Shown piece after piece: positions 35,403-64,000 of a stretch of DNA of 64,000 bases; position 1 is the first letter of the stretch, and every line of letters begins with the position of its first letter. The notes beneath the pieces are model-generated. The model was not told the origin of the DNA and ran no database searches. It worked only from the letters and a program-made list of their open reading frames with translations. A program made the translations under genes and the position numbers. The stretch is from a virus (taxonomy: Duplodnaviria > Caudoviricetes): the IMG/VR virus record IMGVR_UViG_3300031867_000049, positions 274-64,273 of that record; one strand, 5' to 3'.

Positions 35403-35605
35403 CGAAGGAGCATGCTGTGGCTCCGGACGAGAAGATGCTAGAGGAACTATATGAGCTTCTTGGGTTATATTTTGGGATAGAGATCGGAAACGGCATAGTA
35501 AAGCCGGGAGAACGAGTAGACATAGAACCTCAGCTTGACAGGGTTATATTTCGTGAAGAGATTCTCGCACGGATTACAGCGCTGATAGTAGGAGGTGAGA
35601 AATAA
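35375..35605 (+). CDS. Hypothetical protein
   Basis: Tiles after xis; possible GTG start at 35417 after AAGGAG. Confidence 0.45.
   Translation: MAEKQTSYVTKEHAVAPDEKMLEELYELLGLYFGIEIGNGIVKPGERVDIEPQLDRVIFREEILARITALIVGGEK
35564..35591 (+). promoter_or_regulatory. Phage promoter motif copy 1
   Basis: CTCGCA-cggatt-ACA-gcgctga-TAGT|AG. Confidence 0.75.
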
Positions 35606-35823
35606 TGAATAAGACTCTTTATGTATTAATCGTGATTGATGACTGCGTGTATCAACCTAGTATTGTGGGGATATTCGAAACTGAGCAGGACGCTAAAAAC
35701 GTAATTGAGCGAATTGAACAGAACGAACACTCTGAATTAGGTCATGCATGCTTGGAAATCGAGAAGCACGAACTTAATGCTATTGATGAGGAATTACTTG
35801 GTTATAATAATCTCTTTATCTAA
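35605..35823 (+). CDS. Early cassette protein, hypothetical
   Basis: RBS AGGAGGT starting at motif +1. Confidence 0.75.
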   Translation: MNKTLYVLIVIDDCVYQPSIVGIFETEQDAKNVIERIEQNEHSELGHACLEIEKHELNAIDEELLGYNNLFI

Positions 35824-35844
35824 AAATCGTGAGGTCTACATGGC

Positions 35845-35872
35845 CTCGCATTTTTTGCAACCTCTAGTATAG
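35845..35872 (+). promoter_or_regulatory. Phage promoter motif copy 2 (fused with terminator hairpin 35829-35856)
   Basis: CTCGCA-tttttt-GCA-acctcta-GTAT|AG. Confidence 0.8.
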
Positions 35873-35885
35873 GAGGTGAGAAATA

Positions 35886-36176
35886 ATGAATAAATACACA
35901 AAAAAGCAGCAAGAGCAAATAAACATGTGGTCAAAAGTGGAAGAAGAACTTACTAATAAACTTATAGAAGTAAATGAGGAATTACGCATATTATACGGTC
36001 ATAGTATGAATATTTATAATAGCGATGAAATTCTCGAATTTACTGATTTAAGAAAAAAGATAGTAAATAGACTTCATTTTGCAAGTAAACGACGTGAAGA
36101 AGCAATGCAAGCAAAAACTTTGTATGAAAAAAAGAAAATGGAACTCGCCGAGATAAAAGAAAAATGGGGCTTTTAA
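35886..36176 (+). CDS. Early cassette protein, coiled-coil hypothetical
   Basis: RBS + ORF between motif copies. Confidence 0.75.
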   Translation: MNKYTKKQQEQINMWSKVEEELTNKLIEVNEELRILYGHSMNIYNSDEILEFTDLRKKIVNRLHFASKRREEAMQAKTLYEKKKMELAEIKEKWGF

Positions 36177-36190
36177 TAGCCTCTTTTTTT
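36166..36190 (+). terminator. Cassette terminator
   Basis: GGGGC-ttttaata-GCCTC + T7. Confidence 0.7.
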
Positions 36191-36216
36191 CGCATAATGA
36201 ACAACCTCTAGTATAG
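36189..36216 (+). promoter_or_regulatory. Phage promoter motif copy 3
   Basis: TTCGCA-taatga-ACA-acctcta-GTAT|AG. Confidence 0.8.
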
Positions 36217-36229
36217 GAGGTGAATAGAT

Positions 36230-36436
36230 ATGATTCTAAATATTTTAAACACTTATGACGAATTAAATGATTGCACTAAAGAAGAACTAATAAAAATGGT
36301 AATTGCATTAGATCAGGTTGCTGATGAAGCAAAAAATACAATCAACAAATTGACCGATTGCAATAACGCATTATTAGGTGAACTTGGATATGATGATTTA
36401 AAAGTAAGTCAAAGGTTAGAATGGAAGGAATGTTAA
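36230..36436 (+). CDS. Early cassette protein, hypothetical
   Basis: RBS + ORF. Confidence 0.75.
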   Translation: MILNILNTYDELNDCTKEELIKMVIALDQVADEAKNTINKLTDCNNALLGELGYDDLKVSQRLEWKEC

Positions 36437-36467
36437 AAACCTATGAAAATCGCGAGGCATACAAGTC

Positions 36468-36495
36468 CTCGCATTTTTTACAGCCTCTATAATAG
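36468..36495 (+). promoter_or_regulatory. Phage promoter motif copy 4 (fused with hairpin 36452-36479)
   Basis: CTCGCA-tttttt-ACA-gcctcta-TAAT|AG. Confidence 0.8.
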
Positions 36496-36511
36496 CAGGA
36501 GGTATAAAACT

Positions 36512-36697
36512 ATGAATAAAGCAGTTATATTTAGATTTATTGCAGGCTTAATGCTTGTAGCACAGGGAATAGAGTTAGGAAGAACCCTAACGACTAGGAA
36601 ATATTGCTACGATGCAGAAAAGTACGGACATGGAATCATAACGTACACTGATATTCACGGTGTAGATCACCATGCAGTAGTAGAGGCTTATAAATAG
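36512..36697 (+). CDS. Early cassette protein with N-terminal hydrophobic segment
   Basis: Start refined to ATG36512 after AGGAGGT. Confidence 0.7.
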   Translation: MNKAVIFRFIAGLMLVAQGIELGRTLTTRKYCYDAEKYGHGIITYTDIHGVDHHAVVEAYK

Positions 36698-36709
36698 CCT
36701 CTATTTTTT
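36682..36709 (+). terminator. Cassette terminator
   Basis: AGAGGCT-tataaat-AGCCTCT + AT6. Confidence 0.75.
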
Positions 36710-36735
36710 CGCATTTTTTACATCTTTCTTAATAG
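36708..36735 (+). promoter_or_regulatory. Phage promoter motif copy 5
   Basis: TTCGCA-tttttt-ACA-tctttct-TAAT|AG. Confidence 0.8.
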
Positions 36736-36753
36736 AAAGGAAGGTGACTTATC

Positions 36754-37008
36754 ATGAAGGAATATAAAGTAAGTCTTGATATTAAATGTAGTTCTAAAAA
36801 TGAGGCATCGGACATAAAACGAATGATTACTGAATTGGGAGTCGAGTTTGGATATAGGAATTTGGAGATTGCTATATGCAAACCGTTAATCGATGATACG
36901 TATATGATTTCGGTTCAAACCGACGCTAAAACAAAAAAGAAGATTATTAAATATTTAGGATTAACAAAAGAACGTAAAGGTATATCACTATTCGTAATGG
37001 GGGCTTAG
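36754..37008 (+). CDS. Early cassette protein, hypothetical
   Basis: RBS + ORF. Confidence 0.75.
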   Translation: MKEYKVSLDIKCSSKNEASDIKRMITELGVEFGYRNLEIAICKPLIDDTYMISVQTDAKTKKKIIKYLGLTKERKGISLFVMGA

Positions 37009-37022
37009 GCCCTCTATTTTTT
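36999..37022 (+). terminator. Cassette terminator
   Basis: GGGGGC-ttag-GCCCTC + T-tract. Confidence 0.7.
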
Positions 37023-37048
37023 CGCACGAAACACATGTTCTATTATAG
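37021..37048 (+). promoter_or_regulatory. Phage promoter motif copy 6
   Basis: TTCGCA-cgaaac-ACA-tgttcta-TTAT|AG. Confidence 0.8.
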
Positions 37049-37060
37049 GAGGTGATAGAC

Positions 37061-37171
37061 ATGTTAAAAGGTTATTATGTACCGGCAGGATATATGGGCT
37101 GGGTTGGCAATGGATGGATGCTATTCGCAACCGAACAGGATTATTATGAGTATATGAATAGGAGTTTATAA
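37061..37171 (+). CDS. 36-aa microprotein MLKGYYVPAGYMGWVGNGWMLFATEQDYYEYMNRSL
   Basis: Hand-translated (below track cut-off); RBS AGGAGGT. Confidence 0.75.
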   Translation: MLKGYYVPAGYMGWVGNGWMLFATEQDYYEYMNRSL

Positions 37172-37172
37172 A

Positions 37173-37301
37173 ATGGACGAACATAAATACTTGATAAGAG
37201 ATGATTGGAAATGGATAGCAAGAGCAGCCAAAGTCACCAGAATTATATTCTACCCTATATTACTAATTTGGCATCTATTTGATCCAGAAGTAGAGCTCTA
37301 A
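37173..37301 (+). CDS. 42-aa putative membrane microprotein
   Basis: Hand-translated MDEHKYL...IIFYPILLIWHLFDPEVEL; RBS AGGAG. Confidence 0.55.
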   Translation: MDEHKYLIRDDWKWIARAAKVTRIIFYPILLIWHLFDPEVEL

Positions 37302-37318
37302 CAAGGGCTCTTTTTTTT
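37292..37318 (+). terminator. Cassette terminator
   Basis: AGAGCTCT-aaca-AGGGCTCT + T-tract. Confidence 0.75.
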
Positions 37319-37346
37319 CTCGCACCAAAAACACCTCGGTTAGTAG
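37319..37346 (+). promoter_or_regulatory. Phage promoter motif copy 7
   Basis: CTCGCA-ccaaaa-ACA-cctcggt-TAGT|AG. Confidence 0.8.
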
Positions 37347-37359
37347 GAGGTACACTATT

Positions 37360-37716
37360 ATGAACATTAACGAACTTAAAACAAAAGCTAATGTAAAAAT
37401 CACAGGCTGGAAGTGGAAGGCCAAGGTAAAGACTCAGGAGATTAAGAAATGGTGTAAAGAGAATCCTGAATCTGCACTGATTATTGGCGGAGGAATTCTT
37501 GGAGCAGCGAAATATATTGGAAAAGCTGCAATCAAGAGATCCAACATCAATAAGGAAGAGCAGATCAAGACTCATTACTGCTATGACAGATCTTTAGGTC
37601 ATTACTGGTCATTGAAACGCGAGCTTACGAACAGAGAATGGCTTGAGATTGACAAAAGGAAACGTGATGGAGAAAAAATGGCAGACATCCTGGATAGTAT
37701 GAAAGTACTGAAATAA
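37360..37716 (+). CDS. Early cassette protein with Gly/Ala-rich hydrophobic segment
   Basis: ALIIGGGILGAAKYIG; RBS. Confidence 0.8.
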   Translation: MNINELKTKANVKITGWKWKAKVKTQEIKKWCKENPESALIIGGGILGAAKYIGKAAIKRSNINKEEQIKTHYCYDRSLGHYWSLKRELTNREWLEIDKRKRDGEKMADILDSMKVLK

Positions 37717-37738
37717 GAAATCGCGAGGGCAATATGCT

Positions 37739-37766
37739 CTCGCATTTTTTTCAGCCCCTAATATAG
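37739..37766 (+). promoter_or_regulatory. Phage promoter motif copy 8 (fused with hairpin 37723-37751)
   Basis: CTCGCA-tttttt-TCA-gccccta-ATAT|AG. Confidence 0.75.
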
Positions 37767-37778
37767 GAGGTGAAAGAA

Positions 37779-38162
37779 ATGAATATACGAATTTTAGAAA
37801 GGAAACTGCCAGCAGAAATTAAGTACACTAAACGGAATCCTAATGAAACAAAATTCATGACACTCGACGAACTTAATAATGATTTTATCGTTTTACAATG
37901 GTCGAAAACGAGTCTTATGGTTTCTGAAGATTTAGCTAATGGATTATTTAACACCAGCAAAATTGGTGAAAAAGGTAATAGAATAGTATTTCTTGAAGAG
38001 ATTTTAGAGATTATTTTCGGCATAGATGTGGATCTTGATAAACCATATTATTATGAAGAAGGTGAAAGAATTGAATGGGATTATGAATTAATAGGGCTTA
38101 AAACTGGATCGGTATTTATTGAAAGAGCATATGTAATTAGATTTCATCCAACACATTATTAA
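37779..38162 (+). CDS. Early cassette protein, hypothetical
   Basis: RBS + ORF; start refined. Confidence 0.75.
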   Translation: MNIRILERKLPAEIKYTKRNPNETKFMTLDELNNDFIVLQWSKTSLMVSEDLANGLFNTSKIGEKGNRIVFLEEILEIIFGIDVDLDKPYYYEEGERIEWDYELIGLKTGSVFIERAYVIRFHPTHY

Positions 38163-38166
38163 AAGT

Positions 38167-38196
38167 AGGAGGCGCAATGCCTCTTATTTTTTTTTT
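38167..38196 (+). terminator. Cassette terminator
   Basis: AGGAGGC-gcaat-GCCTCTT + T-tract. Confidence 0.75.
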
Positions 38197-38222
38197 CGCA
38201 CTGGATACATGCTCTCTAATGA
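38195..38222 (+). promoter_or_regulatory. Phage promoter motif copy 9
   Basis: TTCGCA-ctggat-ACA-tgctctc-TAAT|GA. Confidence 0.8.
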
Positions 38223-38256
38223 AAGTTATAGGCAGCTATTAGAAAGGAGAAATGAT

Positions 38257-38736
38257 ATGGCTGAAATGTATAACGAAGCTTATGAAGGCGAGTTATTTAT
38301 TACTGAAGGTTTGGACGATGAAGTAGAAAGATACAACCTACTTGAAGATGGGACCGAAAAGAAATTAAATGCCGCTAAAGCGCTGCAAATAAGGCACACA
38401 CTTGGAATCGAAGAGTTTAAAGCCGGTCAGCAGGCAGAAGACATGGCAGAACGCAGACAACTTGAGCGTGAAAGATTAGAACTGGAGCGTGCAAAGATGG
38501 AAGCAGAAGCTGATGAACGAGCTATGCAGGCTAGAGCAGAAGCAAAACGAGAAAAGTTTAGAAACGGAGTAGCGATTGGCGGATTTATATTCACAGGAGC
38601 CCTTCAGATAATAGGACTTGTATTGGATCATGGACATGCGTTCCAGGATACTATCAGGAATAGAAACGCTGAAAATGAAGCGAAGGATACAAGAAGAGCT
38701 TTAGAAAGATTAACTGACAGAATAGCAAACCGCTAA
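38257..38736 (+). CDS. Coiled-coil protein with C-terminal TM
   Basis: Start refined after AAAGGAG; GVAIGGFIFTGALQIIGLVL. Confidence 0.75.
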   Translation: MAEMYNEAYEGELFITEGLDDEVERYNLLEDGTEKKLNAAKALQIRHTLGIEEFKAGQQAEDMAERRQLERERLELERAKMEAEADERAMQARAEAKREKFRNGVAIGGFIFTGALQIIGLVLDHGHAFQDTIRNRNAENEAKDTRRALERLTDRIANR

Positions 38737-38742
38737 CTTTAA

Positions 38743-38781
38743 ATGGGGAGTTCGTGTTAAATACATGGGCTCTCATTTTTT
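38743..38781 (+). terminator. Cassette terminator
   Basis: ATGGGGAGTTCGTGT-taaat-ACATGGGCTCTCAT + T-tract. Confidence 0.7.
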
Positions 38782-38807
38782 CGCATATTTTACACCTCGG
38801 ATTATAG
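38780..38807 (+). promoter_or_regulatory. Phage promoter motif copy 10
   Basis: TTCGCA-tatttt-ACA-cctcgga-TTAT|AG. Confidence 0.8.
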
Positions 38808-38820
38808 GAGGTACAAAGAT

Positions 38821-39072
38821 ATGATTAGACGTAAAAAATACAACAAAAACGTAAATCTACCAATGGATCGAGAAGAGAAACTTGTAAAGGATGTTTGGGA
38901 TGATGTTGCGGAAATGATGATGTCATTACAGGAACTCGAGGGAGATGAAGAAGTAATAGAACATATTGCTGATGGAATCCACGAGTTAGCTGATTTGATA
39001 GAAGCAATCGCATATCAGGGGCAACTCCCTAAGAAACTTAAAAGACCATGGAGAATAAAGGAAATGAGCTAA
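38821..39072 (+). CDS. Early cassette protein, acidic hypothetical
   Basis: RBS + ORF. Confidence 0.75.
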   Translation: MIRRKKYNKNVNLPMDREEKLVKDVWDDVAEMMMSLQELEGDEEVIEHIADGIHELADLIEAIAYQGQLPKKLKRPWRIKEMS

Positions 39073-39123
39073 TAGTTATATTTGAGTATTATTAACCGCG
39101 GGGCTAACATGGCCTCGTATTTT

Positions 39124-39151
39124 TTCGCATGCTTTACAGGTTCTATAGTAG
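39124..39151 (+). promoter_or_regulatory. Phage promoter motif copy 11
   Basis: TTCGCA-tgcttt-ACA-ggttcta-TAGT|AG, preceded by hairpin 39098-39118 and T-tract. Confidence 0.8.
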
Positions 39152-39195
39152 AAATAACACTGTTATTGTAAAGTATATTCAAAGGAGGAACTAAT

Positions 39196-39510
39196 ATGGA
39201 TACTCGTAAGAATTATGAAGAACTTGGAATGGCAATAGTCGAACAGGCAGCGACGGACTACCACAATGCAAGATTCTTTCTTGAAACTGAAGACTTGAGG
39301 TCATATAAAGATACTGCAAGTAAAAACAGTAGACATAATATGGCGAAAAAGACTTTGGCGGAAATAGAAAGTTTCTTTCATAGTGAATGGTTTCGAACAG
39401 TATGCCCGGATCTTGACGGAAAAAAAGCATTTGAAGCTTTGAAAGAAACTTACGACAGAGAAGTTAGGGACGATAAAATGGAAAAATTTATGCGTAACAG
39501 AAATAATTAA
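39196..39510 (+). CDS. Conserved phage hypothetical protein
   Basis: YEELGMAIVEQAATDY...EIESFFHSEWF; RBS AAGGAGG. Confidence 0.8.
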   Translation: MDTRKNYEELGMAIVEQAATDYHNARFFLETEDLRSYKDTASKNSRHNMAKKTLAEIESFFHSEWFRTVCPDLDGKKAFEALKETYDREVRDDKMEKFMRNRNN

Positions 39511-39516
39511 GAATAT

Positions 39517-39550
39517 GAGTTCTTGTAGAAATACAAGGACTCTATTTTTT
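39517..39550 (+). terminator. GAAA-tetraloop terminator with no promoter after it
   Basis: GAGTTCTTGTA-gaaa-TACAAGGACTC + T-tract. Confidence 0.8.
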
Positions 39551-39555
39551 GCCTT

Positions 39556-39894
39556 ATGAAATACTACTACGAAAAACCAACTGAATACACCGTTACAAAA
39601 GCTAAGACGATCCATACGGATGATAAGTTATATTCTGAATGCACTCTTTATGAGGTTGATGGTAAAGGACTCAAAGTAGTGCAGCTCAGATTCAACCCCA
39701 AGCTAAAAGTTTTCTTTTACGGCCCAATAAATCCTTGGCTTATTGATGATATTTTCTCCAGAGAAGGATTTTTAGAAAACCTCTCAGATCCTCCGTATCC
39801 TACTATGACCGTACGGACGCTTATGTGGAAACTTCGGATGAAACCCCTTAAAAAAGAATGGTGGGAAAACTCGCAAATTTTACATAGTAGATAA
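39556..39894 (+). CDS. Hypothetical protein
   Basis: 112-aa ORF; no clear RBS. Confidence 0.6.
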   Translation: MKYYYEKPTEYTVTKAKTIHTDDKLYSECTLYEVDGKGLKVVQLRFNPKLKVFFYGPINPWLIDDIFSREGFLENLSDPPYPTMTVRTLMWKLRMKPLKKEWWENSQILHSR

Positions 39895-39897
39895 TGA
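39870..39897 (+). promoter_or_regulatory. Phage promoter motif copy 12
   Basis: CTCGCA-aatttt-ACA-tagtaga-TAAT|GA, inside 3' end of upstream ORF. Confidence 0.75.
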
Positions 39898-39926
39898 AAA
39901 GTACAGGAGAATTGAGGAGGTGTATT

Positions 39927-40136
39927 ATGAATAACAACATTAAGAATTATGTGTTACTTTACCTTATGCTTATGAAGGCACATGCAGAACTAGTAGTAGA
40001 TATAGTTAAAAATAGTTACGGCAAGACTAAATTGCTGAACCTATTATTAGCTATACCATTTCTGGTTCACTCAGTATTCTATAACATTTGGTGGATAATA
40101 AAATTCGGAAAAAAGTATAAGCCAATCTTTGATTAA
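39927..40136 (+). CDS. Small membrane protein
   Basis: RBS GAGGAGG; hydrophobic segments. Confidence 0.7.
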   Translation: MNNNIKNYVLLYLMLMKAHAELVVDIVKNSYGKTKLLNLLLAIPFLVHSVFYNIWWIIKFGKKYKPIFD

Positions 40137-40145
40137 ATGTATTGC

Positions 40146-40175
40146 ATAAAGGTCGAACAACGGCCTTTATTTTTT
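40146..40175 (+). terminator. Cassette terminator
   Basis: ATAAAGGTCG-aacaa-CGGCCTTTAT + T-tract. Confidence 0.75.
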
Positions 40176-40201
40176 CGCAAATATTACAGCCCATATAATG
40201 A
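40174..40201 (+). promoter_or_regulatory. Phage promoter motif copy 13
   Basis: TTCGCA-aatatt-ACA-gcccata-TAAT|GA. Confidence 0.8.
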
Positions 40202-40232
40202 AAAATACCGGAGATCATGAAAGGAGAAAATC

Positions 40233-40544
40233 ATGGGTATTGTTAATAAAATAAGGGCGATTAGAAAAGGAACAGAGAAAGTTAAAGATTTTGATAACGC
40301 AAAGACAGAAAAACACAATGTTCATTATTCGAGATATATAGCATCTTGGATTAATGCTGGTGGAGATTTGTCAACGTTAGACGGATGGTACAGCTTTGCA
40401 TTTTGGCTGGATACACTTGGACTGACGGCTGATGAAATCTATCACATTAGAGTGATGGCTACAAACGGAAAACTTGAACTTGAAAATTCTGCAAAAGAAT
40501 TTATCAAAAGAGCAAACGAGATTTCTCTCGGACTTAAGGGCTAA
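40233..40544 (+). CDS. Early cassette protein, hypothetical
   Basis: RBS AAAGGAG + ORF. Confidence 0.8.
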   Translation: MGIVNKIRAIRKGTEKVKDFDNAKTEKHNVHYSRYIASWINAGGDLSTLDGWYSFAFWLDTLGLTADEIYHIRVMATNGKLELENSAKEFIKRANEISLGLKG

Positions 40545-40562
40545 TCAGCCCTTTTATTTTTT
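40536..40562 (+). terminator. Cassette terminator
   Basis: AAGGGCT-aatc-AGCCCTT + T-tract. Confidence 0.75.
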
Positions 40563-40588
40563 CGCATTTTTTACATCTACTATAATGG
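40561..40588 (+). promoter_or_regulatory. Phage promoter motif copy 14
   Basis: TTCGCA-tttttt-ACA-tctacta-TAAT|GG. Confidence 0.8.
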
Positions 40589-40621
40589 AACGTAGTGCTA
40601 AGAAGTGAAAGGAGTACGGAA

Positions 40622-40774
40622 ATGAAAAAAGCACTCATAATTACAACACTGGCTTATGAAGTAGCGTATATAGTAGTAGCTATATATGCACTGAAGAATC
40701 CGGAGAAGTATGGTGAATGGAATGCTAAATTTATTGGCAGTATGACAAGCACACTTGAGAAACTAGGTTTATAA
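40622..40774 (+). CDS. 50-aa membrane microprotein
   Basis: Hand-translated MKKALIITTLAYEVAYIVVAIYALK...; RBS AAAGGAG. Confidence 0.65.
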   Translation: MKKALIITTLAYEVAYIVVAIYALKNPEKYGEWNAKFIGSMTSTLEKLGL

Positions 40775-40789
40775 AGGAGGAAGAATCAA

Positions 40790-40903
40790 ATGATGACAGT
40801 ATGGAATGTAATTAAAGGTATATGCACGATTACTGGAGCATACGTTTGGATCAAAGCAATCAAAGAAACGATTGAAGAATACAACGAAGCTCCAGAGAAG
40901 TAA
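40790..40903 (+). CDS. 37-aa microprotein
   Basis: Hand-translated MMTVWNVIKGICTITGAYVWIKAIKE...; RBS AAGGAGG. Confidence 0.6.
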   Translation: MMTVWNVIKGICTITGAYVWIKAIKETIEEYNEAPEK

Positions 40904-40923
40904 ATATAGCTAAAGCAAGCCAT

Positions 40924-40950
40924 AGGGGAGCCATTTGGTTCCTCTTTTTT
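40924..40950 (+). terminator. Cassette terminator
   Basis: AGGGGAGCC-attt-GGTTCCTCT + T5. Confidence 0.75.
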
Positions 40951-40963
40951 CTCTGAACATATG

Positions 40964-40991
40964 TTCGCAAAATTTACATCTTCTTTAATGA
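40964..40991 (+). promoter_or_regulatory. Phage promoter motif copy 15
   Basis: TTCGCA-aaattt-ACA-tcttctt-TAAT|GA. Confidence 0.8.
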
Positions 40992-41016
40992 GAAATCAGA
41001 AAAGGAGGATGGACTG

Positions 41017-41184
41017 ATGATATCGTTTGAATTAATATTATACGTTATAGTTTATGGATTTGAATTCTTCATACTCGCACTGATGGGTATAGGATTATTC
41101 GGATTTATATGCGGTAAGTTTAATAATGAGACGTTACAGGCGGTTCACGACTACATATTCGTGATTGACGACGAGGAGCTTTAA
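41017..41184 (+). CDS. 55-aa membrane microprotein
   Basis: Hand-translated MISFELILYVIVYGFEFFILALMGIGLFGFICG...; RBS AAGGAGG. Confidence 0.65.
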   Translation: MISFELILYVIVYGFEFFILALMGIGLFGFICGKFNNETLQAVHDYIFVIDDEEL

Positions 41185-41198
41185 GGCTCCTTTTTTTT
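41174..41198 (+). terminator. Terminator with no promoter after it
   Basis: AGGAGC-tttaag-GCTCCT + T7. Confidence 0.75.
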
Positions 41199-41212
41199 CT
41201 AAGGAGGAAGAA

Positions 41213-41443
41213 ATGGGAAACGATCTTAATAATAGGCCATATGAACAGCCACGCTTAATGCATGTCTATTTAACATCGGGAAGACCGGAACTTATATTTG
41301 GATACCCATCGGCAATAGCCCAAATGATGCGGGTGATGTATGGCTATGATAGTTTAAAGGCTGTAAGGGTTTTGAAATTATGGAAGCCGACAGAGGTAAC
41401 GCGATATGAAGCGCAGTCATCATGGTCATCTACGCTAGGATAA
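41213..41443 (+). CDS. Hypothetical protein
   Basis: RBS AAGGAGG; start refined. Confidence 0.6.
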   Translation: MGNDLNNRPYEQPRLMHVYLTSGRPELIFGYPSAIAQMMRVMYGYDSLKAVRVLKLWKPTEVTRYEAQSSWSSTLG

Positions 41444-41458
41444 AAAAGGTGAAGAATT

Positions 41459-41782
41459 ATGAAGCAACTTTTATATGTGTATAGCTGGGACCCGACCAGA
41501 AGAAAGATACATGAGTACACAGGTTATTATTACCCAGCTTGGCCTGCGCCACTTCTTACACGACTGCCAGATGCGCATGATACGTGGTTCAGAAAGATAC
41601 CAGAACATTGCGGCGAGTTCTATGGAAATGCAGTATGGTTTTTGGAACCTAATCCTAAAAAGGCGCAACTTATATTTATTGAAGCTGAGCTTAAGAAGAT
41701 AGACGCATGCAAAGAAATTATAAGAAAAGGAGAAGAAAACATACGATATTTGTCGTCATATACATATGAAGAAGAATATTAG
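41459..41782 (+). CDS. Hypothetical protein
   Basis: Tiles in operon. Confidence 0.65.
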   Translation: MKQLLYVYSWDPTRRKIHEYTGYYYPAWPAPLLTRLPDAHDTWFRKIPEHCGEFYGNAVWFLEPNPKKAQLIFIEAELKKIDACKEIIRKGEENIRYLSSYTYEEEY

Positions 41783-41792
41783 AATCCTTATT

Positions 41793-41820
41793 CTCGCAGT
41801 ATTTACAACCTATGTTATAG
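41793..41820 (+). promoter_or_regulatory. Phage promoter motif copy 16
   Basis: CTCGCA-gtattt-ACA-acctatg-TTAT|AG. Confidence 0.8.
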
Positions 41821-41837
41821 CAAAGGAGGTAAATGCT

Positions 41838-42131: not shown

Positions 42132-42165
42132 AGAAGGTCAGCGAAAGTTGGCCTTTTATTTTTTT
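42132..42165 (+). terminator. GAAA-tetraloop terminator with no promoter after it
   Basis: AAGGTCAGC-gaaa-GTTGGCCTT + T-tract. Confidence 0.8.
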
Positions 42166-42188
42166 AACTTTTGAAAGGAGCAACTAAA

Positions 42189-47905: not shown

Positions 47906-48000
47906 TGAAAATACTTGGAGGGTTTATCACAATATGGCTCACAGTATTCACAGTGGCTTCTGCAGTATTAGCAGCCATGAAGATATTCGGTGTGATCTAG
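47905..48000 (+). CDS. 31-aa membrane microprotein
   Basis: Hand-translated MKILGGFITIWLTVFTVASAVLAAMKIFGVI; RBS GAGGAGG. Confidence 0.55.
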   Translation: MKILGGFITIWLTVFTVASAVLAAMKIFGVI

Positions 48001-48028
48001 TTCGCAAAAATTACAGACCATATAATAG
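48001..48028 (+). promoter_or_regulatory. Phage promoter motif copy 17
   Basis: TTCGCA-aaaatt-ACA-gaccata-TAAT|AG; +1 is first base of tRNA-like element. Confidence 0.8.
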
Positions 48029-48096
48029 AGAAGTAGCTTAATGGTAAAGCATCTGGTGAAAGCCAGTTGATAGAGGTTCGATTCCTCTCTTCTTTT
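48027..48096 (+). tRNA. Atypical tRNA-Phe(GAA)-like element, 6-nt anticodon loop, no CCA
   Basis: Acceptor AGAGAAG/CTTCTTT; D-arm GCTT-aatggta-AAGC; T-arm AGAGG-TTCGATT-CCTCT; anticodon arm CTGG-tgaaag-CCAG. Confidence 0.6.
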
Positions 48097-50135: not shown

Positions 50136-50158
50136 ATGGCAGGGTTAAATGCTCCTAA

Positions 50159-50186
50159 TTCGCACGAAATACAGCCTCTATAGTAG
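50159..50186 (+). promoter_or_regulatory. Phage promoter motif copy 18
   Basis: TTCGCA-cgaaat-ACA-gcctcta-TAGT|AG. Confidence 0.8.
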
Positions 50187-50199
50187 GAGGTACACTATT

Positions 50200-50466: not shown

Positions 50467-50507
50467 AAAAGGCGAAGGGGTTTCAGCTCCTTTGCTTTTT
50501 ATTTTTT
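50467..50507 (+). terminator. Cassette terminator
   Basis: AAAAGGCGAAGGGG...CTCCTTTGCTTTTT + T-tract. Confidence 0.65.
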
Positions 50508-50533
50508 CGCAGTTTTTACAACCCATATTATAG
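50506..50533 (+). promoter_or_regulatory. Phage promoter motif copy 19
   Basis: TTCGCA-gttttt-ACA-acccata-TTAT|AG. Confidence 0.8.
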
Positions 50534-50574
50534 GATTAAATCTCAACCATATAATTTAAAAGGAGGAAAATGAG

Positions 50575-58228: not shown

Positions 58229-58722
58229 TGGAAAATAATCAGACTATTACAATTTGGGATGCTAAGCTTTATTTCAAGAACTTTGCAGGTGCAGAAGGTA
58301 GATATAACCAGAAAGGAGACAGAAACTTTGGAGTATTCATCGATGATGAAACAGCAAAGCAGCTTGAAGAAGATGGATGGAATGTAAAATACACAAAGCC
58401 GAATGAGGATGGATATCAGAGGCCTTATCTCAAAGTTAAGGTGAGCTATAAGGGTTATCAGAAGCCTAGACTTTATCTCGAGGATGAAGAAGGGCATAAG
58501 GTAATACTCAAAGAAGAAGATGTTGCAGACCTCGATGAGTATGTGTTTGACAAAATCGATCTTAAGATTCGCCATGCATATCTTAAGAATTATGATGTGT
58601 GGACACAGTATCTTGATAAAGGATATTTCGTAATGGTTGAAGACGAGATTGATAAGGCTCATGGAAATAATCCTGCAATGTCAGGTCCTATCGAAGACGA
58701 TCTGGATGACATTCCATTTTAG
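58228..58722 (+). CDS. ssb: Single-stranded DNA-binding protein
   Basis: FKNFAG...GDRNF; acidic C-terminus DDLDDIPF. Confidence 0.8.
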   Translation: MENNQTITIWDAKLYFKNFAGAEGRYNQKGDRNFGVFIDDETAKQLEEDGWNVKYTKPNEDGYQRPYLKVKVSYKGYQKPRLYLEDEEGHKVILKEEDVADLDEYVFDKIDLKIRHAYLKNYDVWTQYLDKGYFVMVEDEIDKAHGNNPAMSGPIEDDLDDIPF

Positions 58723-58725
58723 GAG

Positions 58726-59925
58726 GTGAAAACGGTGTCCGTAGAATTATATGAACACCAAAAGCTCGCAGTTCCTAAATTAAAAAATGGATCAATATTA
58801 TGTGGCGGGGTCGGCTCTGGTAAATCCAGAACGGCCCTTGCCTATTTTTTGGAAAAGGAATTGGATGGATCATTAGAAACATTAAAAGTAAAAAAGCATA
58901 AAGACTTATATATAATAACTACTGCTAGAAAAAGAGATACTAATGAATGGCTTGATGAATGTACTCCGTTCGAATTTCCAAAAGAAATAAACATAGTTAT
59001 TGATTCTTGGAATAACATAAGAAAATATACTAATGTGTGCAATGCCTTTTTTATTTTCGATGAGCAACGAGTAGTTGGATATGGAGCATGGACAAAAGCA
59101 TTCTTGCAAATAACAAAAAAAAATCGATGGATTTTACTTAGTGCAACTCCTGGCGATACATGGTCTGACTATATTCCGGTGTTTATTGCAAATGGGTTCT
59201 ATAAGAATAAAACAGAATTTGTAAGAAGACATATTGTGTATAATCGCTTTTCTAAATTTCCAAAAGTTGATAGATACCTTGATACTGGGAGACTTATGAA
59301 ATTAAGAAAAGACATTTTGGTTAATATGAAATTTATGAAACCGACACAGGTTCATCATAAAACATTAATAGCCAAATATGACACAGCAGCATATTCTTAT
59401 GTGACAACCGAAAGAAAGAACTATTACACAAAAGAGCCATTTAAGAATATGGGAGCGCTTTGTTTGAATTTAAGACAAATAGTGAATTCCGATCAAGACA
59501 GGGTTGCGCTTCTTAGAATGCTTATTTTGCAAAATCCAAAAGTAATTGTTTTTTATAACTTTGATTATGAGTTAGAAATACTAAGAGAATTAGGAAAAGA
59601 GCTTGAAATTAAAACTGCTGAATGGAATGGGCATATTCATGAGCCGATACCAGATGAGAAATATTCTGAGTGGATGTATTTAGTTCAGTATACTGCCGGA
59701 GCCGAAGGGTGGAATTGTATAGAAACGAATGTCATAATTTTTTATTCACAAAACTATTCTTATAAAATAATGACTCAGGCGGCCGGAAGAATAGATAGAT
59801 TAAATACTCCATTTTCAGACTTGTATTATTATCATCTACGTTCTAATTCGAGCATAGATATTTCAATCATGCGGGCTTTAAGGAAAAAGAAAAATTTTAA
59901 TGCAAGCGGTTTTTCATTAGATTAA
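58726..59925 (+). CDS. SF2 (SNF2/DEAD-like) helicase
   Basis: GGVGSGKS, FDEQR, LSATPG, QAAGRIDR. Confidence 0.9.
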   Translation: MKTVSVELYEHQKLAVPKLKNGSILCGGVGSGKSRTALAYFLEKELDGSLETLKVKKHKDLYIITTARKRDTNEWLDECTPFEFPKEINIVIDSWNNIRKYTNVCNAFFIFDEQRVVGYGAWTKAFLQITKKNRWILLSATPGDTWSDYIPVFIANGFYKNKTEFVRRHIVYNRFSKFPKVDRYLDTGRLMKLRKDILVNMKFMKPTQVHHKTLIAKYDTAAYSYVTTERKNYYTKEPFKNMGALCLNLRQIVNSDQDRVALLRMLILQNPKVIVFYNFDYELEILRELGKELEIKTAEWNGHIHEPIPDEKYSEWMYLVQYTAGAEGWNCIETNVIIFYSQNYSYKIMTQAAGRIDRLNTPFSDLYYYHLRSNSSIDISIMRALRKKKNFNASGFSLD

Positions 59926-59948
59926 CATTTACAAGGCTTCTTTCAAAA

Positions 59949-59976
59949 TTCGCGCGAAAAACAAGGACTCTAATAG
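59949..59976 (+). promoter_or_regulatory. Phage promoter motif copy 20
   Basis: TTCGCG-cgaaaa-ACA-aggactc-TAAT|AG. Confidence 0.7.
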
Positions 59977-60005
59977 AAGGAGAAGAGTAACTCCTTCTTT
60001 TTTTT
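59975..60005 (+). terminator. Terminator/attenuator beginning exactly at predicted +1
   Basis: AGAAGGAG-aagagtaa-CTCCTTCT + T7. Confidence 0.8.
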
Positions 60006-60023
60006 GTGCGAAAGGAGTAACCA

Positions 60024-60317
60024 ATGGCTAAAGAAAATAAATTTCAAGCCAATCTTATTAAGGAATTAGAAAAAGAATTTCCAGGATCTATTATTACAAA
60101 ATTAGATCCTAATCATATCCAAGGAATTCCAGATCTTTTAATTCTTTATAAAGATAAATGGGCAACTCTTGAATGTAAGAAGTCATCTAATGCTAAACAT
60201 CAGCCAAATCAGGATGACTATGTGGAGAGAATGAATGAGATGTCATTCTCTTCTTTTATTTGTCCTGAAAATAAGGAGGAAGTATTAAATGAACTTCAAC
60301 ACGCATTACGAGATTAA
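60024..60317 (+). CDS. VRR-NUC-like PD-(D/E)XK nuclease (Holliday junction resolvase-like)
   Basis: GIPDLLIL...LECK...Q. Confidence 0.85.
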   Translation: MAKENKFQANLIKELEKEFPGSIITKLDPNHIQGIPDLLILYKDKWATLECKKSSNAKHQPNQDDYVERMNEMSFSSFICPENKEEVLNELQHALRD

Positions 60318-60846
60318 AGATAAGCATGCGTTTTTGAGTCCAAGCAAACATTACTGGATCAATTGGGATATCGAAAAATTAAGAACTTCATTTAAAAATG
60401 CTCAAGCTGCAGAAAGAGGGACAAGACTTCATGCGTTAGCAGCAGAATGCATTTCCCTTGGCGTAAAACTGCAAAACAACAAAACAACTTTGAGCATGTA
60501 TGTAAATGATGCGCTTGGCTACAAAATGACTGCTGAAGTTCCATTATTTTATTCTTCAAACTGTTTTGGTCATGCTGATGCTTTGTCATTCAATCGAAAG
60601 TTATTAAGGATTTTCGATTTAAAAACGGGAACCGTGTCTCAAGGGTCAATGGATCAGCTTCTTATTTATGCTGCATTATTTTGCCTTGAATACCATATCG
60701 ATCCACGAACCATCAAATATGATTTACGAATTTACCAATTTGATAAAGCGGTCTGTTATGAACCAAGCGGCGAAGAAATAAATGAAATTATGGACATTAT
60801 TATCGAACTTGATACTTACCTTGAAGAAATGAAAGTTGAGGAGTAA
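60289..60846 (+). CDS. PD-(D/E)XK (Cas4/RecB-like) exonuclease
   Basis: AFLSPS..HW; GTRLH; AEVPL; GHADAL; IFDLKTG; QL.IYA. Confidence 0.8.
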   Translation: MNFNTHYEIKDKHAFLSPSKHYWINWDIEKLRTSFKNAQAAERGTRLHALAAECISLGVKLQNNKTTLSMYVNDALGYKMTAEVPLFYSSNCFGHADALSFNRKLLRIFDLKTGTVSQGSMDQLLIYAALFCLEYHIDPRTIKYDLRIYQFDKAVCYEPSGEEINEIMDIIIELDTYLEEMKVEE

Positions 60847-60848
60847 TT

Positions 60849-63596
60849 ATGGAAAAAGACGAATTAATGCACTATGGTACTCCTCGGCATTCTGGGAGAT
60901 ATCCGTGGGGCTCAGGAGAAAATCCTTATCAGCATAGTTATGGAGGTTTTTTAGGGCAATACGAATATTACAAGAAATCCGGTGAATTTAAGAATAATAC
61001 TGAAATTGCTCGTGCTATGGGTATGAGCACAACAGAATTCAGAGATAAGCTGTCTAATGCAAAATCTGAAAAAAGAGCTGCTGATAGAGCAAAAGCCATC
61101 GAATTACTAAATCAACAGAAAAATGCTTCTGCTGATGGAAAAGCCAATGTTTCACAAATTGCTCGAGAAATGGGCTTAAATGAGTCTTCAGTAAGAAATC
61201 TTTTGAAAGATACTCTTAATGAAAGAGCTCAAATTACTAAAAATACAGCAGAATTGCTAAAAAAGAACGTTGACGAAAAAAAGTATATCGATGTTGGTAC
61301 TGGCGTTGAAAATCATTTGGGAATAAGCCAAACAAAATTAAGAGCTGCTATAGATCAACTTAAATCTGAAGGCTATCACGTAGAAAATGTATATGTTGAG
61401 CAAGTAGGCACAGGAAAACAGACAACTGTTAAAGTGCTTGTTGGACCAAAATGCACATGGAGTGAAGTTAACAGAAATAAAGATCAAATACAGCTCATAA
61501 ATGGCTATTCTGAAGATAAAGGCAGAACTTTTCTTAATATTGAGCCTCCAGTAAGTGTCGATTCTAGCAGAATAAAAATTAATTATGATTCGCCTAAAGA
61601 TGGAGTAATTGAACTTCGAAGAGGTGTTGATGACATATCTTTAGGAAATGCTAGTTATGCACAAGTTCGAATTGCTGTAGATGGAACGCATTATTTAAAA
61701 GGAATGGCTATGTATTCCGATAATATGCCAAAAGGTGTTGACATTATGTTCAACACAAATAAGCATGAAGGAACGCCAATGATGGCACCAAATAAAGATG
61801 ATAAACAAGTATTAAAAATGCTTAAAACAAACAAAGACAATGTATTTGGTGCAACTATCAAAAATGATGAGGATGTTATTCTGACTCAAAGACACTATAT
61901 TGATAAAGATGGCGTTAGAAGACAGTCAGCAATAAACGTTGTTAATGAAGAAGGAGATTGGGGAAAATGGTCTAAGAGCCTATCTTCACAATTTCTTTCT
62001 AAACAATCGCCAATGCTAGCAAAAAAGCAGCTTGAAATAACATCAACACAGCAAAGAGCTGAATTAGATGAAATAAAGAGCCTTACGAATCCAGTAGTTA
62101 AACAAAAGCTACTGGATTCTTTTGCTAATGACTGTGATTCTAAAGCAGTACATTTAAAAGCAGCAAATTTACCAAGACAAGCAAGCCATGTAATTCTTCC
62201 TTTCCCTAATATGAAAGAGAATGAAGTATATGCTCCAAATTATAGAGATGGAGAAAACGTAGTCCTGATTCGTTATCCTCATGGAGGTAAATTTGAAATT
62301 CCACAGTTAAAAGTAAATAACAATAATAAAGAGGCTAGAAGTTTATTAGGAAATGCACCAGATGCTATTGGAATAAATCCAAAAGTAGCAGGTAAATTAT
62401 CTGGTGCTGACTTTGATGGTGATACAGTTCTTGTTATTCCTGTAAATAATAGAGTTAAAGTTCAAACACAGAATTCGCCAGCATTTAAAGCTCTTCAAAC
62501 CTTCGATCCACAAGAAAGTTATCCAGGATATGAAGGCATGAAGAAAATGACAGCCCATCAAAAGCAAATAGAAATGGGTAAAGTATCGAATCTTATTACA
62601 GATATGACACTTTACAGAGCTAGTGATGATGAAATAGTGCGCGCTGTTAAACATTCTATGGTAGTTATTGATGCTGAGAAGCATGGTCTTAACTGGAAGC
62701 AATCAGAAATAGATAATGGAATTCCTCAGCTTAAAAAGAAATACCAAGGAAAAGAAACTGGTGGTGCTGCCACTCTTATTTCGAGAGCCAAGTCTGAGTC
62801 AAGACCTAATGAAAGAAAAGAAATATTTAATACTAGCCGCATGACCCCTGAACAACTAGCTGATTGGAAGGCTGGTAAAAAAGTATATGTTGATACTGGT
62901 AAATCATATGTGGATAAAAATGGAAATACTGTCGTTCGTAAAACAAAATCCACACAGATGGCAGAGACAGATGACGCATATAAAATAACAAGCGGGGGGT
63001 CTAAAAATAATCCAGGCACAGTTATGGAGTCTATATACGCCCAGCACGCCAATACCCTCAAGGGGATGGCGGATGAGGCACGCCGGGAGTCAAGGTCTAT
63101 AAAAGGAACGCCTTACAATCCTCAAGCAAAGAAAATATATGCTAACGAGGTGGCCTCCTTAGATGCTAAATTAGACCGGGCTATGAAAAATAAACCGTTA
63201 GAGAGACAGGCCCAGCTCATAGCAAATAAGACCATATCTGATCAGACTAAGGCCAATCCGGATATGTCTAAGGATGAGAAAAAAAGATTAAAACAGCAGG
63301 CCCTATCAGGGGCTAGATATAGAGTGGGTAAGGAGCCTTACACCATAAATATTACAGAAAAAGAATGGGATGCTATTCAATCTGGAGCTATTTCTAAGTC
63401 TAAACTCTCATCTATATTAGACAATGCGGATATGGATCAAGTTAAAAAATATGCAACTCCAAAACAATCAAAAGGATTATCACAAGCTAAAATAAGTAGA
63501 GCTAAAGCCTTACTTAATGCAGGCTTTACACAAGCAGAAGTCGCTGATGAATTAGGAATATCTACAACCACACTGTCGAGAAGTCTTAATAGTTAA
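60849..63596 (+). CDS. Putative single-chain two-barrel DNA-dependent RNA polymerase with HTH domains and LMH|YG leader
   Basis: VLIRYP (R475), IGINPKVAGKLSGADFDGD (D521-D525), YAQVRI...LKG (K284); HTHs at ~aa50-66, ~100-119, ~893-913. Confidence 0.8.
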   Translation: MEKDELMHYGTPRHSGRYPWGSGENPYQHSYGGFLGQYEYYKKSGEFKNNTEIARAMGMSTTEFRDKLSNAKSEKRAADRAKAIELLNQQKNASADGKANVSQIAREMGLNESSVRNLLKDTLNERAQITKNTAELLKKNVDEKKYIDVGTGVENHLGISQTKLRAAIDQLKSEGYHVENVYVEQVGTGKQTTVKVLVGPKCTWSEVNRNKDQIQLINGYSEDKGRTFLNIEPPVSVDSSRIKINYDSPKDGVIELRRGVDDISLGNASYAQVRIAVDGTHYLKGMAMYSDNMPKGVDIMFNTNKHEGTPMMAPNKDDKQVLKMLKTNKDNVFGATIKNDEDVILTQRHYIDKDGVRRQSAINVVNEEGDWGKWSKSLSSQFLSKQSPMLAKKQLEITSTQQRAELDEIKSLTNPVVKQKLLDSFANDCDSKAVHLKAANLPRQASHVILPFPNMKENEVYAPNYRDGENVVLIRYPHGGKFEIPQLKVNNNNKEARSLLGNAPDAIGINPKVAGKLSGADFDGDTVLVIPVNNRVKVQTQNSPAFKALQTFDPQESYPGYEGMKKMTAHQKQIEMGKVSNLITDMTLYRASDDEIVRAVKHSMVVIDAEKHGLNWKQSEIDNGIPQLKKKYQGKETGGAATLISRAKSESRPNERKEIFNTSRMTPEQLADWKAGKKVYVDTGKSYVDKNGNTVVRKTKSTQMAETDDAYKITSGGSKNNPGTVMESIYAQHANTLKGMADEARRESRSIKGTPYNPQAKKIYANEVASLDAKLDRAMKNKPLERQAQLIANKTISDQTKANPDMSKDEKKRLKQQALSGARYRVGKEPYTINITEKEWDAIQSGAISKSKLSSILDNADMDQVKKYATPKQSKGLSQAKISRAKALLNAGFTQAEVADELGISTTTLSRSLNS

Positions 63597-63673
63597 GAAG
63601 AAATATGCAGTGACTAAGTATGTACCTATGAGAACAATGGACAGTCGAATGAATCAAATGAAAGGAAAGTTTT

Positions 63674-63931
63674 ATGGCTTCAATGTTAACAACGATTGAC
63701 AATCCTTTTAATCCTTTCACTCAATACGATGAATGGTTCCAGTTTGATGAAGAAAAAGGTTACCATACGGCTCAGTTTCTTGCAAAGATTGCAAAGACTT
63801 CATCGAACATGAGTGATTCTGATTATGAAAAGGAAGTTGAGCGAGCAATAGATGAGATTGTTAAGTTTAATGTTCGCGGAATTGATAAGAAAGTTTCTGA
63901 TAATTCTGAAACGATATCAAATAAGGCATAG
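63674..63931 (+). CDS. Conserved small phage protein
   Basis: MLTTIDNPFNPFTQYDEW...GY.T...LA.IA..S. Confidence 0.75.
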   Translation: MASMLTTIDNPFNPFTQYDEWFQFDEEKGYHTAQFLAKIAKTSSNMSDSDYEKEVERAIDEIVKFNVRGIDKKVSDNSETISNKA

Positions 63932-63934
63932 GGT

Positions 63935-63997
63935 CTAAAATTTTAGGGGTAGAGGGGGGTATCTGTCAAAACACCCCCCTCCCTGCATCGCGGCCCT
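63935..63997. other. Candidate cos/packaging region
   Basis: Palindrome CTAAAATTTTAG, 9-bp G/C inverted repeat 63952-63981, GC-rich 9-mer CGCGGCCCT; lies just upstream (circularly) of terS and HNH. Confidence 0.4.
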
Positions 63998-64000
63998 CTT

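Follow-up and report, generated by a model that had tools for sequence, protein, structure and literature searches.

A helix-turn-helix protein encoded near the right end of a temperate siphovirus genome has a predicted single-chain two-barrel RNA polymerase core

Introduction

Whether a phage protein that most sequence records name only after its helix-turn-helix (HTH) segments could be an RNA polymerase (RNAP), and which genes such an enzyme would transcribe, is the question raised by a gene near the right end of a 64,000-nt stretch of phage DNA (positions 274 to 64,273 of the IMG/VR record IMGVR_UViG_3300031867_000049; the whole stretch is hereafter called the window). The window comprises nearly all of a 64,273-bp record that is complete by CheckV, with a GC content of ~40%, and is a complete temperate siphovirus. 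The gene in question is an open reading frame (ORF; P0001) at 60849-63596 on the plus strand, with an ATG start and 915 codons plus a stop. A preliminary description of the sequence had read it as an HTH-bearing protein of 915 amino acids (aa) that hides a single-chain two-barrel RNAP core; the coordinates given there were exact and the quoted motifs were all in place. The best overall explanation of the results presented here, which we consider quite probable, is a DNA-dependent phage RNAP that recognises a promoter of its own and may travel in the virion.

Predicted fold and catalytic motifs

The structure of the protein was modelled by AlphaFold2 with an alignment of 64 representative relatives sharing 44-61% identity (alignment A1), resulting in a mean predicted local distance difference test score (pLDDT) of 86.7, a predicted template modelling score of 0.77 and two blocks rich in strands, one at aa 242-367 and the other at aa 445-532. 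The preliminary description had proposed a search for two double-psi beta-barrels as the structural check, and this confident model indeed found its best PDB matches among single-chain two-barrel polymerases. The highest-scoring match was QDE-1 (Foldseek E 1.3e-10, probability 1.00; VIA Z 15.3, root-mean-square deviation 4.7 over 373 residues, model residues 231-751 on QDE-1 522-1189), and maize RDR2 also matched well (Foldseek ~5e-6, probability 1.00; VIA Z 14.5). Strong fold matches were likewise obtained for single-chain two-barrel RNAPs of Thermus phages, namely P32 gp64 and P74 gp62 (Foldseek ~1e-6 for both, with probability 1.00 for gp64; VIA Z 13.6 and 13.2, respectively) and the tape-measure-fused virion RNAP P23-45 gp96 (Foldseek 9e-4; not listed by VIA). 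The largest subunits of Pol II, Pol I, Pol III and the African swine fever virus RNAP aligned over aa 435-639, the region of the beta-prime-like barrel, with VIA Z ~10.9, and the Foldseek matches to Pol II, Pol IV, archaeal and bacterial beta-prime subunits were weaker than those to the single-chain enzymes. In the viral structure library BFVD, the matches included phage entries named 'RNA dependent RNA polymerase', a P23-45 protein and crAss-like proteins. By predicted fold and DxDGD loop, the protein thus belongs to the two-barrel (double-psi beta-barrel) RNAP superfamily, and the two-barrel interpretation is supported by a confident fold prediction together with conservation.

The first, beta-like double-psi barrel is predicted at aa 240-370 (61566..61958, +), where the model places strands between residues 242 and 367, inside the QDE-1 alignment. 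It holds the string YAQVRIAVDGTHYLKGMA at aa 270-287, which the preliminary description had likened to a barrel motif of cellular RNA-dependent RNA polymerases (RdRPs) and YonO-type enzymes; the motif within it, QVRIAVDGTHYLKG (aa 272-285; 61662-61703, +), carries residues Q272, R274, K284 and G285, all of which are invariant in A1 and may correspond to the beta-subunit lysine sites that face the active site. The second, beta-prime-like barrel is predicted at aa 440-532 (62166..62444, +), as indicated by the RPB1/beta-prime alignments and by a Pfam RdRP match at aa 512-635. It contains RYPH (62271-62282, +) and the invariant SGADFDGD (62400-62423, +), the latter within AIGINPKVAGKLSGADFDGDTV (aa 506-527), whose acidic residues are D521, D523 and D525. 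The string VLIRYP, noted earlier as lying upstream of the loop, ends at P477, and R475 sits 46 residues before D521. The ADFDGD loop that had been aligned by eye with the catalytic loop of beta-prime is in place, and among the 64 relatives S518, G519, A520, D521, D523, G524 and D525 as well as R475, P477 and H478 are invariant. After the loop, two helical motifs, MGKVSNLITD and HSMVVIDAEKH (aa 569-633; 62553..62747, +), hold the further invariant residues M576, G577, N581, L582, I583, D585, M604, D608, K611 and H612. The Asp triad would lie between the two barrels, a placement that follows from the QDE-1 alignment across both of them and not from measured distances.

Conservation was also counted over 270 proteins, i.e., the window protein and 269 relatives, with [SA]GADxDGD present in 270/270, R[YHF]PH in 268/270 and Q[VIL]R...KG in 258/270. 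Variation of DFDGD among homologues had been named in advance as an outcome that would speak against a polymerase; the loop is kept in every protein of the set. Sequence conservation at this level indicates that the motifs are not due to chance.

Fused helix-turn-helix modules

The polymerase core is flanked by HTH modules at both ends, in agreement with the two N-terminal HTHs and one C-terminal HTH described earlier. Pfam HTH models, many of them overlapping, matched aa 76-130 and aa 875-914, and in the structure model aa 34-56 form a further HTH and aa 150-198 a winged helix. Near the N-terminus, two tandem HTHs (aa 34-93 and aa 94-144; 60948..61280, +), each followed by a long helix, are supported by Pfam HTH_23, HTH_29 and HTH_28 and by the model helices, and in the 64-sequence alignment they share the consensus G-x-S-x-x-(E/A)-I-A-x-x-x-G-x-S. 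They are followed by a winged-helix-like module (aa 150-200; 61296..61448, +) with model helices at 153-173, a beta hairpin at 177-198 and weak matches to GntR, HTH_11 and RPA_C. At the other end lies a pair of helical modules (aa 837-914; 63357..63590, +) closing with an HTH, as evidenced by the model helices, by HTH_24, MarR_2, HTH_7 and HTH_3 at aa 875-914 and by phrog_664 at aa 875-913. An ESM Atlas search with aa 30-215 returned one uninformative HTH_23 cluster (score 0.76).

Two sigma-factor models were among the Pfam matches, Sigma70_r4_2 with 26.4 bits against a cut-off of 25.7 (aa 102-120 only) and Sigma70_r4 with 24.1 against a cut-off of 24.1; both matches cover ~20-25 residues amid more than 20 generic HTH models that score alike, and PDB sigma factors matched the polymerase profile at E ~1. 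A sigma-like promoter-recognition role is proposed for the fused HTHs.

Family, annotation and known relatives

The protein matched phrog_4291 ('RNA-dependent RNA polymerase') over almost its full length (aa 2-914 on profile positions 8-906 of 909, E=0), together with a marginal and partial match to PF05183, the RdRP family of QDE-1/RDR type (24.5 bits against a gathering cut-off of 23.8; aa 512-635 on profile 426-558 of 582). A tblastn search of 50,697 phage records retrieved 250 records at 40-54% identity, with at least 80% of the query covered in 249 of them. The hosts of these relatives include Arthrobacter, Gordonia, Streptomyces, Lactococcus, Curtobacterium, Microbacterium, Rhodococcus and Faecalibacterium, and in most of the linear records among the matches listed a few hundred bases separate the polymerase gene from the right end. 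The best relative from an isolated phage was 54% identical and the best from a metagenome 98%, and no near-identical DNA to positions 58000-64000 was found in the phage collection. In metagenomes the family comprises at least 8000 clusters at 90% identity (all 8000 scored candidates matched), and among 50%-identity representatives 2473 matched at E <=0.001 and 889 at E <=1e-30.

The expectation that automated annotation would see only the HTHs was borne out in part, as 'HTH DNA-binding domain protein' is the name in most deposited GenBank records, whereas PHROG 4291, PF05183, some deposited records and several RefSeq copies give the name 'RNA-dependent RNA polymerase'. In the same way, the polymerase core is real in prediction but not hidden, as the family had already been recognised in silico in a 2021 preprint (10.1101/842583). 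According to the available text of that preprint, the same family has an RdRP-like core, a DxDGD loop and HTHs at both ends, an HHpred match to PF05183 of 95.7% was obtained, and the DxDGD loop is common to crAss-like and YonO-like enzymes; the window protein resembles the family described there in its flanking replication genes and in the position of the gene near the right genome end. Function was inferred there from HHpred and motifs, and the available text describes no structure model, promoter or virion link. The family is therefore not new, being recognised both in databases and in the preprint, and the window protein is a new, diverged member from a temperate phage of 40% GC, probably from a cattle-gut metagenome.

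Within the superfamily, the model places the protein in the branch of QDE-1, RDR and phage single-subunit enzymes. A published analysis separates two-barrel RNAPs into a multisubunit clade and a single-subunit clade of phage, plasmid and RNAi enzymes (10.1101/2022.12.01.518664), and the nearest solved relatives found here, the QDE-1/RDR and Thermus gp64 groups, agree with that division. The alignments to QDE-1 and RDR2 cover both barrels and the post-loop helices, yet the identity over aligned residues is only 11-18% with no sequence-level PDB match, and they span model residues 221-753 only, so that the HTH modules lie outside. QDE-1 and RDR2 act on RNA or single-stranded templates in RNA silencing, unlike the window protein, which is a phage protein with an accompanying DNA motif. 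The Thermus-phage RNAPs read DNA motifs of their own, and virion delivery is the route taken by one of these enzymes (10.1101/2022.12.01.518664); they differ from the window protein in being ~600 aa long or fused to a tape measure protein, and the same paper mentions no HTH domains.

The resemblance to YonO of the Bacillus prophage SPbeta is one of layout, both proteins having one chain and two barrels (839 aa in YonO, 915 aa here) and carrying R-x-P-H, DxDGD and a G-x-[VI]-SN-x-IT helix in identical order. Indeed, a non-significant hhalign alignment pairs RYPH with RSPH, ADFDGD with FDNDGD and MGKVSNLIT with IGEISNNIT (window protein and YonO family, respectively). In contrast to the window protein, YonO has no Pfam match, hence no HTH match, and bears conserved C-terminal cysteine pairs instead. 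By sequence, the window protein does not belong to the YonO family, the hhalign comparison being non-significant (probability 2%, E 0.023). By analogy, the window protein may work like YonO, which is DNA-dependent (PMC5467207), without belonging to its family.

A promoter-like motif in the early region

A repeat finder recovered overlapping families of a 30-55-nt element on the plus strand between 35.5 and 50.5 kb. Sixteen copies of 36 nt each with the pattern TTTTTT-CGCA-N5-TTACA-N5-TATAAT lie on the plus strand within 35558..41822 (scores of a position weight matrix, PWM, 21-43; repeat families D3-D7, D10 and D13), starting at 35558, 35839, 36183, 36462, 36702, 37015, 37313, 37733, 38189, 38774, 39118, 39864, 40168, 40555, 40958 and 41787. 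Further copies on the same strand are located at 47995..48030 (PWM 27.3), 50153..50188 (PWM 35.6) and 50500..50535 (PWM 43.0). In total, the PWM scan gave 19 strong plus-strand sites with scores of 21-43 (two of them outside the matrix set), compared with 0.3 matches per shuffle. TTTCGCA alone showed no enrichment. A Shine-Dalgarno sequence and a start codon often lie directly 3' of the motif, and a G+C-rich hairpin with a T-run usually lies 5' of it. Between 34.8 and 42.2 kb, sigma-70-like sites numbered 20 against 25.4 expected, and terminator-like hairpins 18 against 4.0 expected.

The starts of the boxes are 9 and 10 bp apart, i.e., about one helical turn, with a gap of 5 bp between TTTACA and TATAAT and of 14 bp between TTCGCA and TATAAT. 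The elements of sigma-70 promoters are usually separated by 16-18 bp. A sigma-70 reading of the motif was rejected on account of this spacing and of its conservation across phyla. In Lactococcus phage P162 (33% GC) the matrix built from the window found five plus-strand sites, as it did in Streptomyces phage RosaAsantewaa (59% GC), and the core TTTACA-N5-TATAATGA occurs in 12 copies in P162 and 7 copies in RosaAsantewaa, all on the plus strand at the start of the early region. Refinement of the matrix on the phages' own sites yielded 12 copies of TTTTACA(T/C)(A/G)CCCTATAATGA in P162 and 7 copies of TCGCA-N5-(T/C)ACA-N5-T(A/T)(A/T)(A/G)ATGAGACCCC in RosaAsantewaa. The retention of an AT-rich element across such different hosts, together with the shared HTH polymerase, suggests that it is the enzyme's own promoter; as judged from these comparisons of sequence, the motif is best explained as the promoter of the co-inherited HTH-bearing polymerase.

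A weak copy of the motif, together with the hairpin and T-run behind it (59943..60007, +; PWM 14.6 for the motif), stands upstream of the block of endonuclease, exonuclease and polymerase genes, and RosaAsantewaa has a motif copy in the same relative place before this block, at position 38679. In the window, the stretch 59943-60023 shows a hairpin (59975-59998) and a T-run directly after the motif and before the ribosome-binding site, and may be a leader or attenuator controlling polymerase expression.

Public sequencing runs were searched for the motif-rich region 35400-42200. The full stretch was present in one run only, a bovine gut metagenome that may have been the source sample; two metatranscriptome runs and one doubtful run held short contigs of relatives only, which were uninformative on transcript starts. 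In a gut run, related-phage contigs skip 3252 nt (37318/40571) and 446 nt (37743/38190), with the breaks inside motif copies, which suggests that early-gene cassettes may be exchanged by recombination at the conserved motif.

Hints of virion delivery

If nearly all early genes stand behind a promoter that is not expected to serve the host enzyme, a source is needed for the first polymerase molecules, and the N-terminus of the polymerase offers a candidate route. Its first 30 residues are poorly structured in the model (pLDDT ~50) yet highly conserved, with G10, S15, G16, R17, G21 and G23 invariant, and the peptide at aa 4-28, DELMHYGTPRHSGRYPWGSGENPYQ (60858..60932, +), is a candidate address tag. 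Three very basic, lysine-rich low-complexity proteins encoded on the plus strand beside the genes for the large terminase (TerL) and portal (1027-2214, 4037-4654 and 4657-5055) start with the Pfam domain DUF7211 (PF23847, HYGVKGMKW; 33-44 bits), and this tag also heads ORFs beside TerL in P162, 1706 and RosaAsantewaa. The genes at 4037-4654 and 4657-5055, between TerL and portal, are paralogous, their first 116 nt being 76% identical (family D11). When a profile of the polymerase N-terminus was run against 1121 open frames of three phages, the polymerases ranked first and the next six were DUF7211 ORFs beside TerL. In addition, orf75 of Lactococcus phage 1706 is 39% identical to the window polymerase over its full length, and the depositors' record (EU081845) labels both orf75 and orf7, the DUF7211 protein upstream of TerL, as 'structural protein'; RefSeq renames orf75 as RdRP. 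These three observations, on the N-terminus, on DUF7211 and on phage 1706, point weakly to the virion, the delivery route of the phage RNAPs N4 vRNAP, crAss gp66 and P23-45 gp96. No literature on DUF7211 was found.

Proposed mechanism and alternatives

The proposed mechanism starts from the two-barrel fold with its invariant catalytic motifs, which the analyses above demonstrate. The core would consist of a beta-like barrel (aa ~240-370) followed by a beta-prime-like barrel (aa ~440-532) whose loop D521-x-D523-G-D525 would bind Mg, with three HTH modules on the N-terminal side of the core and one or two on its C-terminal side. From this it is likely that the protein is an active DNA-templated RNA polymerase transcribing phage genes. 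That it reads TCGCA-N5-TTACA-N5-TATAAT before early and middle genes is an assignment which we favour only slightly over its contrary; in that case the promoter would be recognised by the fused HTHs in place of a sigma factor, and transcription would start at the AT-rich box or a little beyond it, given that the Shine-Dalgarno sequence often comes directly next. The last step, in which copies of the enzyme are loaded into the virion via the conserved N-terminal peptide and enter with the DNA, falls somewhat short of an even chance, and would explain the first use of promoters that the host enzyme should not recognise. Joined into one, these steps would describe a self-sufficient, sigma-independent RNAP that is packed into the capsid via its HYG...WGSG peptide (a diverged DUF7211 tag) and injected, and whose HTHs read a ~26-bp promoter that has accompanied the enzyme among phages of Firmicutes and Actinobacteria; this complete scheme is tentative and rather doubtful.

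Several results weigh against a promoter-reading, virion-carried DNA-dependent RNAP. The literature search found no biochemistry, structure or transcript mapping for any family member, and the active-site geometry is deduced from the alignment and not from coordinates. Sequence searches of the PDB with the whole protein, with the 64-sequence profile and with aa 432-640 returned only HTH or chance matches and no polymerase, and hhalign comparison of A1 with YonO alone (probability 1.8%) or with a 24-sequence YonO alignment (2.1%, E 0.023) was not significant. As 17 of the 19 strong sites in the window went into the PWM, its independent support comes only from the repeat finder and the matches in other phages, and the phage encodes a protein with sigma-region-4 and alpha C-terminal domains (alpha-CTD) that could in principle read promoters. 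The polymerase gene sits at the end of the replication module and not among obvious late genes; with E values of up to 10 allowed, the DUF7211 Pfam model matched neither aa 1-60 nor aa 1-234 of the polymerase, the six DUF7211 cross-matches (from the window, P162 and RosaAsantewaa) were weak (E 0.006-0.3), and the basis of the 'structural protein' label of 1706 orf75 is unconfirmed.

As regards the template, the nearest solved relatives, QDE-1 and RDR2, are RNA-templated or dual enzymes. An RdRP copying phage or host transcripts, for example into double-stranded or antisense RNA, would fit the best structural and profile matches (QDE-1, RDR2 and PF05183) and the database names. These names, however, are inherited from the Pfam family and not from assays, the characterised phage single-chain enzyme YonO is DNA-dependent (PMC5467207), and QDE-1 itself also accepts DNA templates (PMC9508822). 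With three to five fused HTHs and a co-inherited DNA motif before the early genes fitting a DNA-templated, promoter-directed enzyme, an RdRP function is improbable. Doubt of another kind concerns the reader of the motif, since a real polymerase could use its HTHs for autoregulation or genome tethering and leave the motif to another factor, that is, to host RNAP with a host or phage factor such as the protein encoded at 45492-46157. The motif does hold the sigma-70-like hexamers TTTACA and TATAAT with a T-run upstream, the phage does encode a protein with Sigma70_r4 (57.3 bits) and RNA_pol_A_CTD (63.5 bits), and the link between HTHs and motif is a putative one. Against this stand the box gaps of 5 and 14 bp in place of the usual 16-18 bp and a core kept in Lactococcus and Streptomyces phages despite the differing promoters and GC contents of their hosts, and in the phages examined it is the HTH polymerase that was identified as a conserved candidate for DNA binding. 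For the sigma4/alpha-CTD protein no phage record gave a full-length match, and the motif-sharing phages are absent among the partial matches listed; with no counterpart there, it was rejected as the general reader of the motif. Recognition of the motif by a factor other than the polymerase is thus unlikely, while keeping appreciable weight.

A role of the two-barrel core in replication, whether in the synthesis of primers or of origin transcripts or as a DNA polymerase of the PolD type, is suggested by the gene closing the replication and recombination block and by the ability of two-barrel cores to make DNA, as in archaeal PolD (PMC7708050). The phage, however, already encodes a 1267-aa primase-polymerase, RNA polymerases filled the list of fold matches with PolD absent among the matches listed, and a role at a single origin would leave the many repeated promoter-like sites unexplained, which makes a replicative function very improbable. 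Barely plausible is a multi-HTH transcription regulator with a catalytically dead core: the name 'HTH DNA-binding protein' in most curated phage records would suit it, but the catalytic loop and barrel motifs are invariant in 270 proteins diverged to ~45% identity, and invariance of catalytic residues at such divergence indicates selection on catalysis. A DNA-dependent phage RNAP reading its own promoter is the explanation that we retain.

Genome context

The left end of the genome encodes, in order, an HNH endonuclease, a connector protein, a basic protein, the large terminase and two small basic proteins, followed by the portal, a capsid-protease fusion and the tail genes. The integrase gene (33888-34994, -) comes after the tail genes and before a long run of small early genes. 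The replication block encodes the primase-polymerase, an annealing protein, a helicase, a small endonuclease and an exonuclease, and the right end holds the 915-aa polymerase gene and then an 85-aa ORF. The gene order of this last block is shared by Streptomyces phage RosaAsantewaa and the Lactococcus phages P162 and 1706. The 85-aa ORF (63674..63931, +; phrog_4303, E 3.4e-34) lies directly downstream of the polymerase gene in 4/4 phages examined and is a possible partner of the enzyme. It is 34-47% identical to the ORFs at the same position in RosaAsantewaa, P162 and 1706, with which it shares the invariant start MLT-x-DNP-x-NP-x-T, and has 1102 homologues. The model of this protein (pLDDT 80.8) gave no usable fold match (best Foldseek E 2.1, best VIA-wide Z 3.8).

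The sigma4/alpha-CTD protein is encoded by a 221-aa ORF at 45492-46157 (+), with Sigma70_r4 at aa 40-85 and RNA_pol_A_CTD at aa 130-185; across the phage records its matches were to single domains only. It may target the host RNA polymerase, as a decoy or as an adaptor. The adjoining ORF (46150-46872, +) has a PF18909 dATP/dGTP diphosphohydrolase-like domain (79.9 bits) and a weak N-terminal zinc-ribbon signal. Moreover, three to four paralogues of phrog_2152 are present in the middle region (48132-48989, 49260-50135, 52243-53079 and a partial copy at 42859-43215), and two ORFs of the tail region (21309-21817 and 27673-27971) contain 42-nt tandem repeats in ten and five copies, respectively, in frame with a period of 14 codons (families D1 and D2).

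Implications

Single-chain two-barrel RNAPs are minimal relatives of the universal cellular transcription enzyme, and to our knowledge few have been characterised, namely YonO, crAss gp66 and P23-45 gp64 and gp96. For the window itself the result is mostly confirmatory. The family to which its polymerase belongs is very abundant, occurs in phages of culturable hosts (Lactococcus, Arthrobacter, Gordonia and Streptomyces) and is distinctive in having its own DNA-binding modules and an accompanying promoter-like element. As such, it makes testable how a minimal two-barrel enzyme may locate promoters in the absence of sigma and TFB, whether injection of a polymerase occurs in temperate siphoviruses, and whether an orthogonal expression system for Gram-positive bacteria could be based on the enzyme-promoter pair. 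If the complete scheme were true, the enzyme would be the first two-barrel RNAP guided by HTHs, and ordinary temperate siphoviruses would have a virion-RNAP system that is new.

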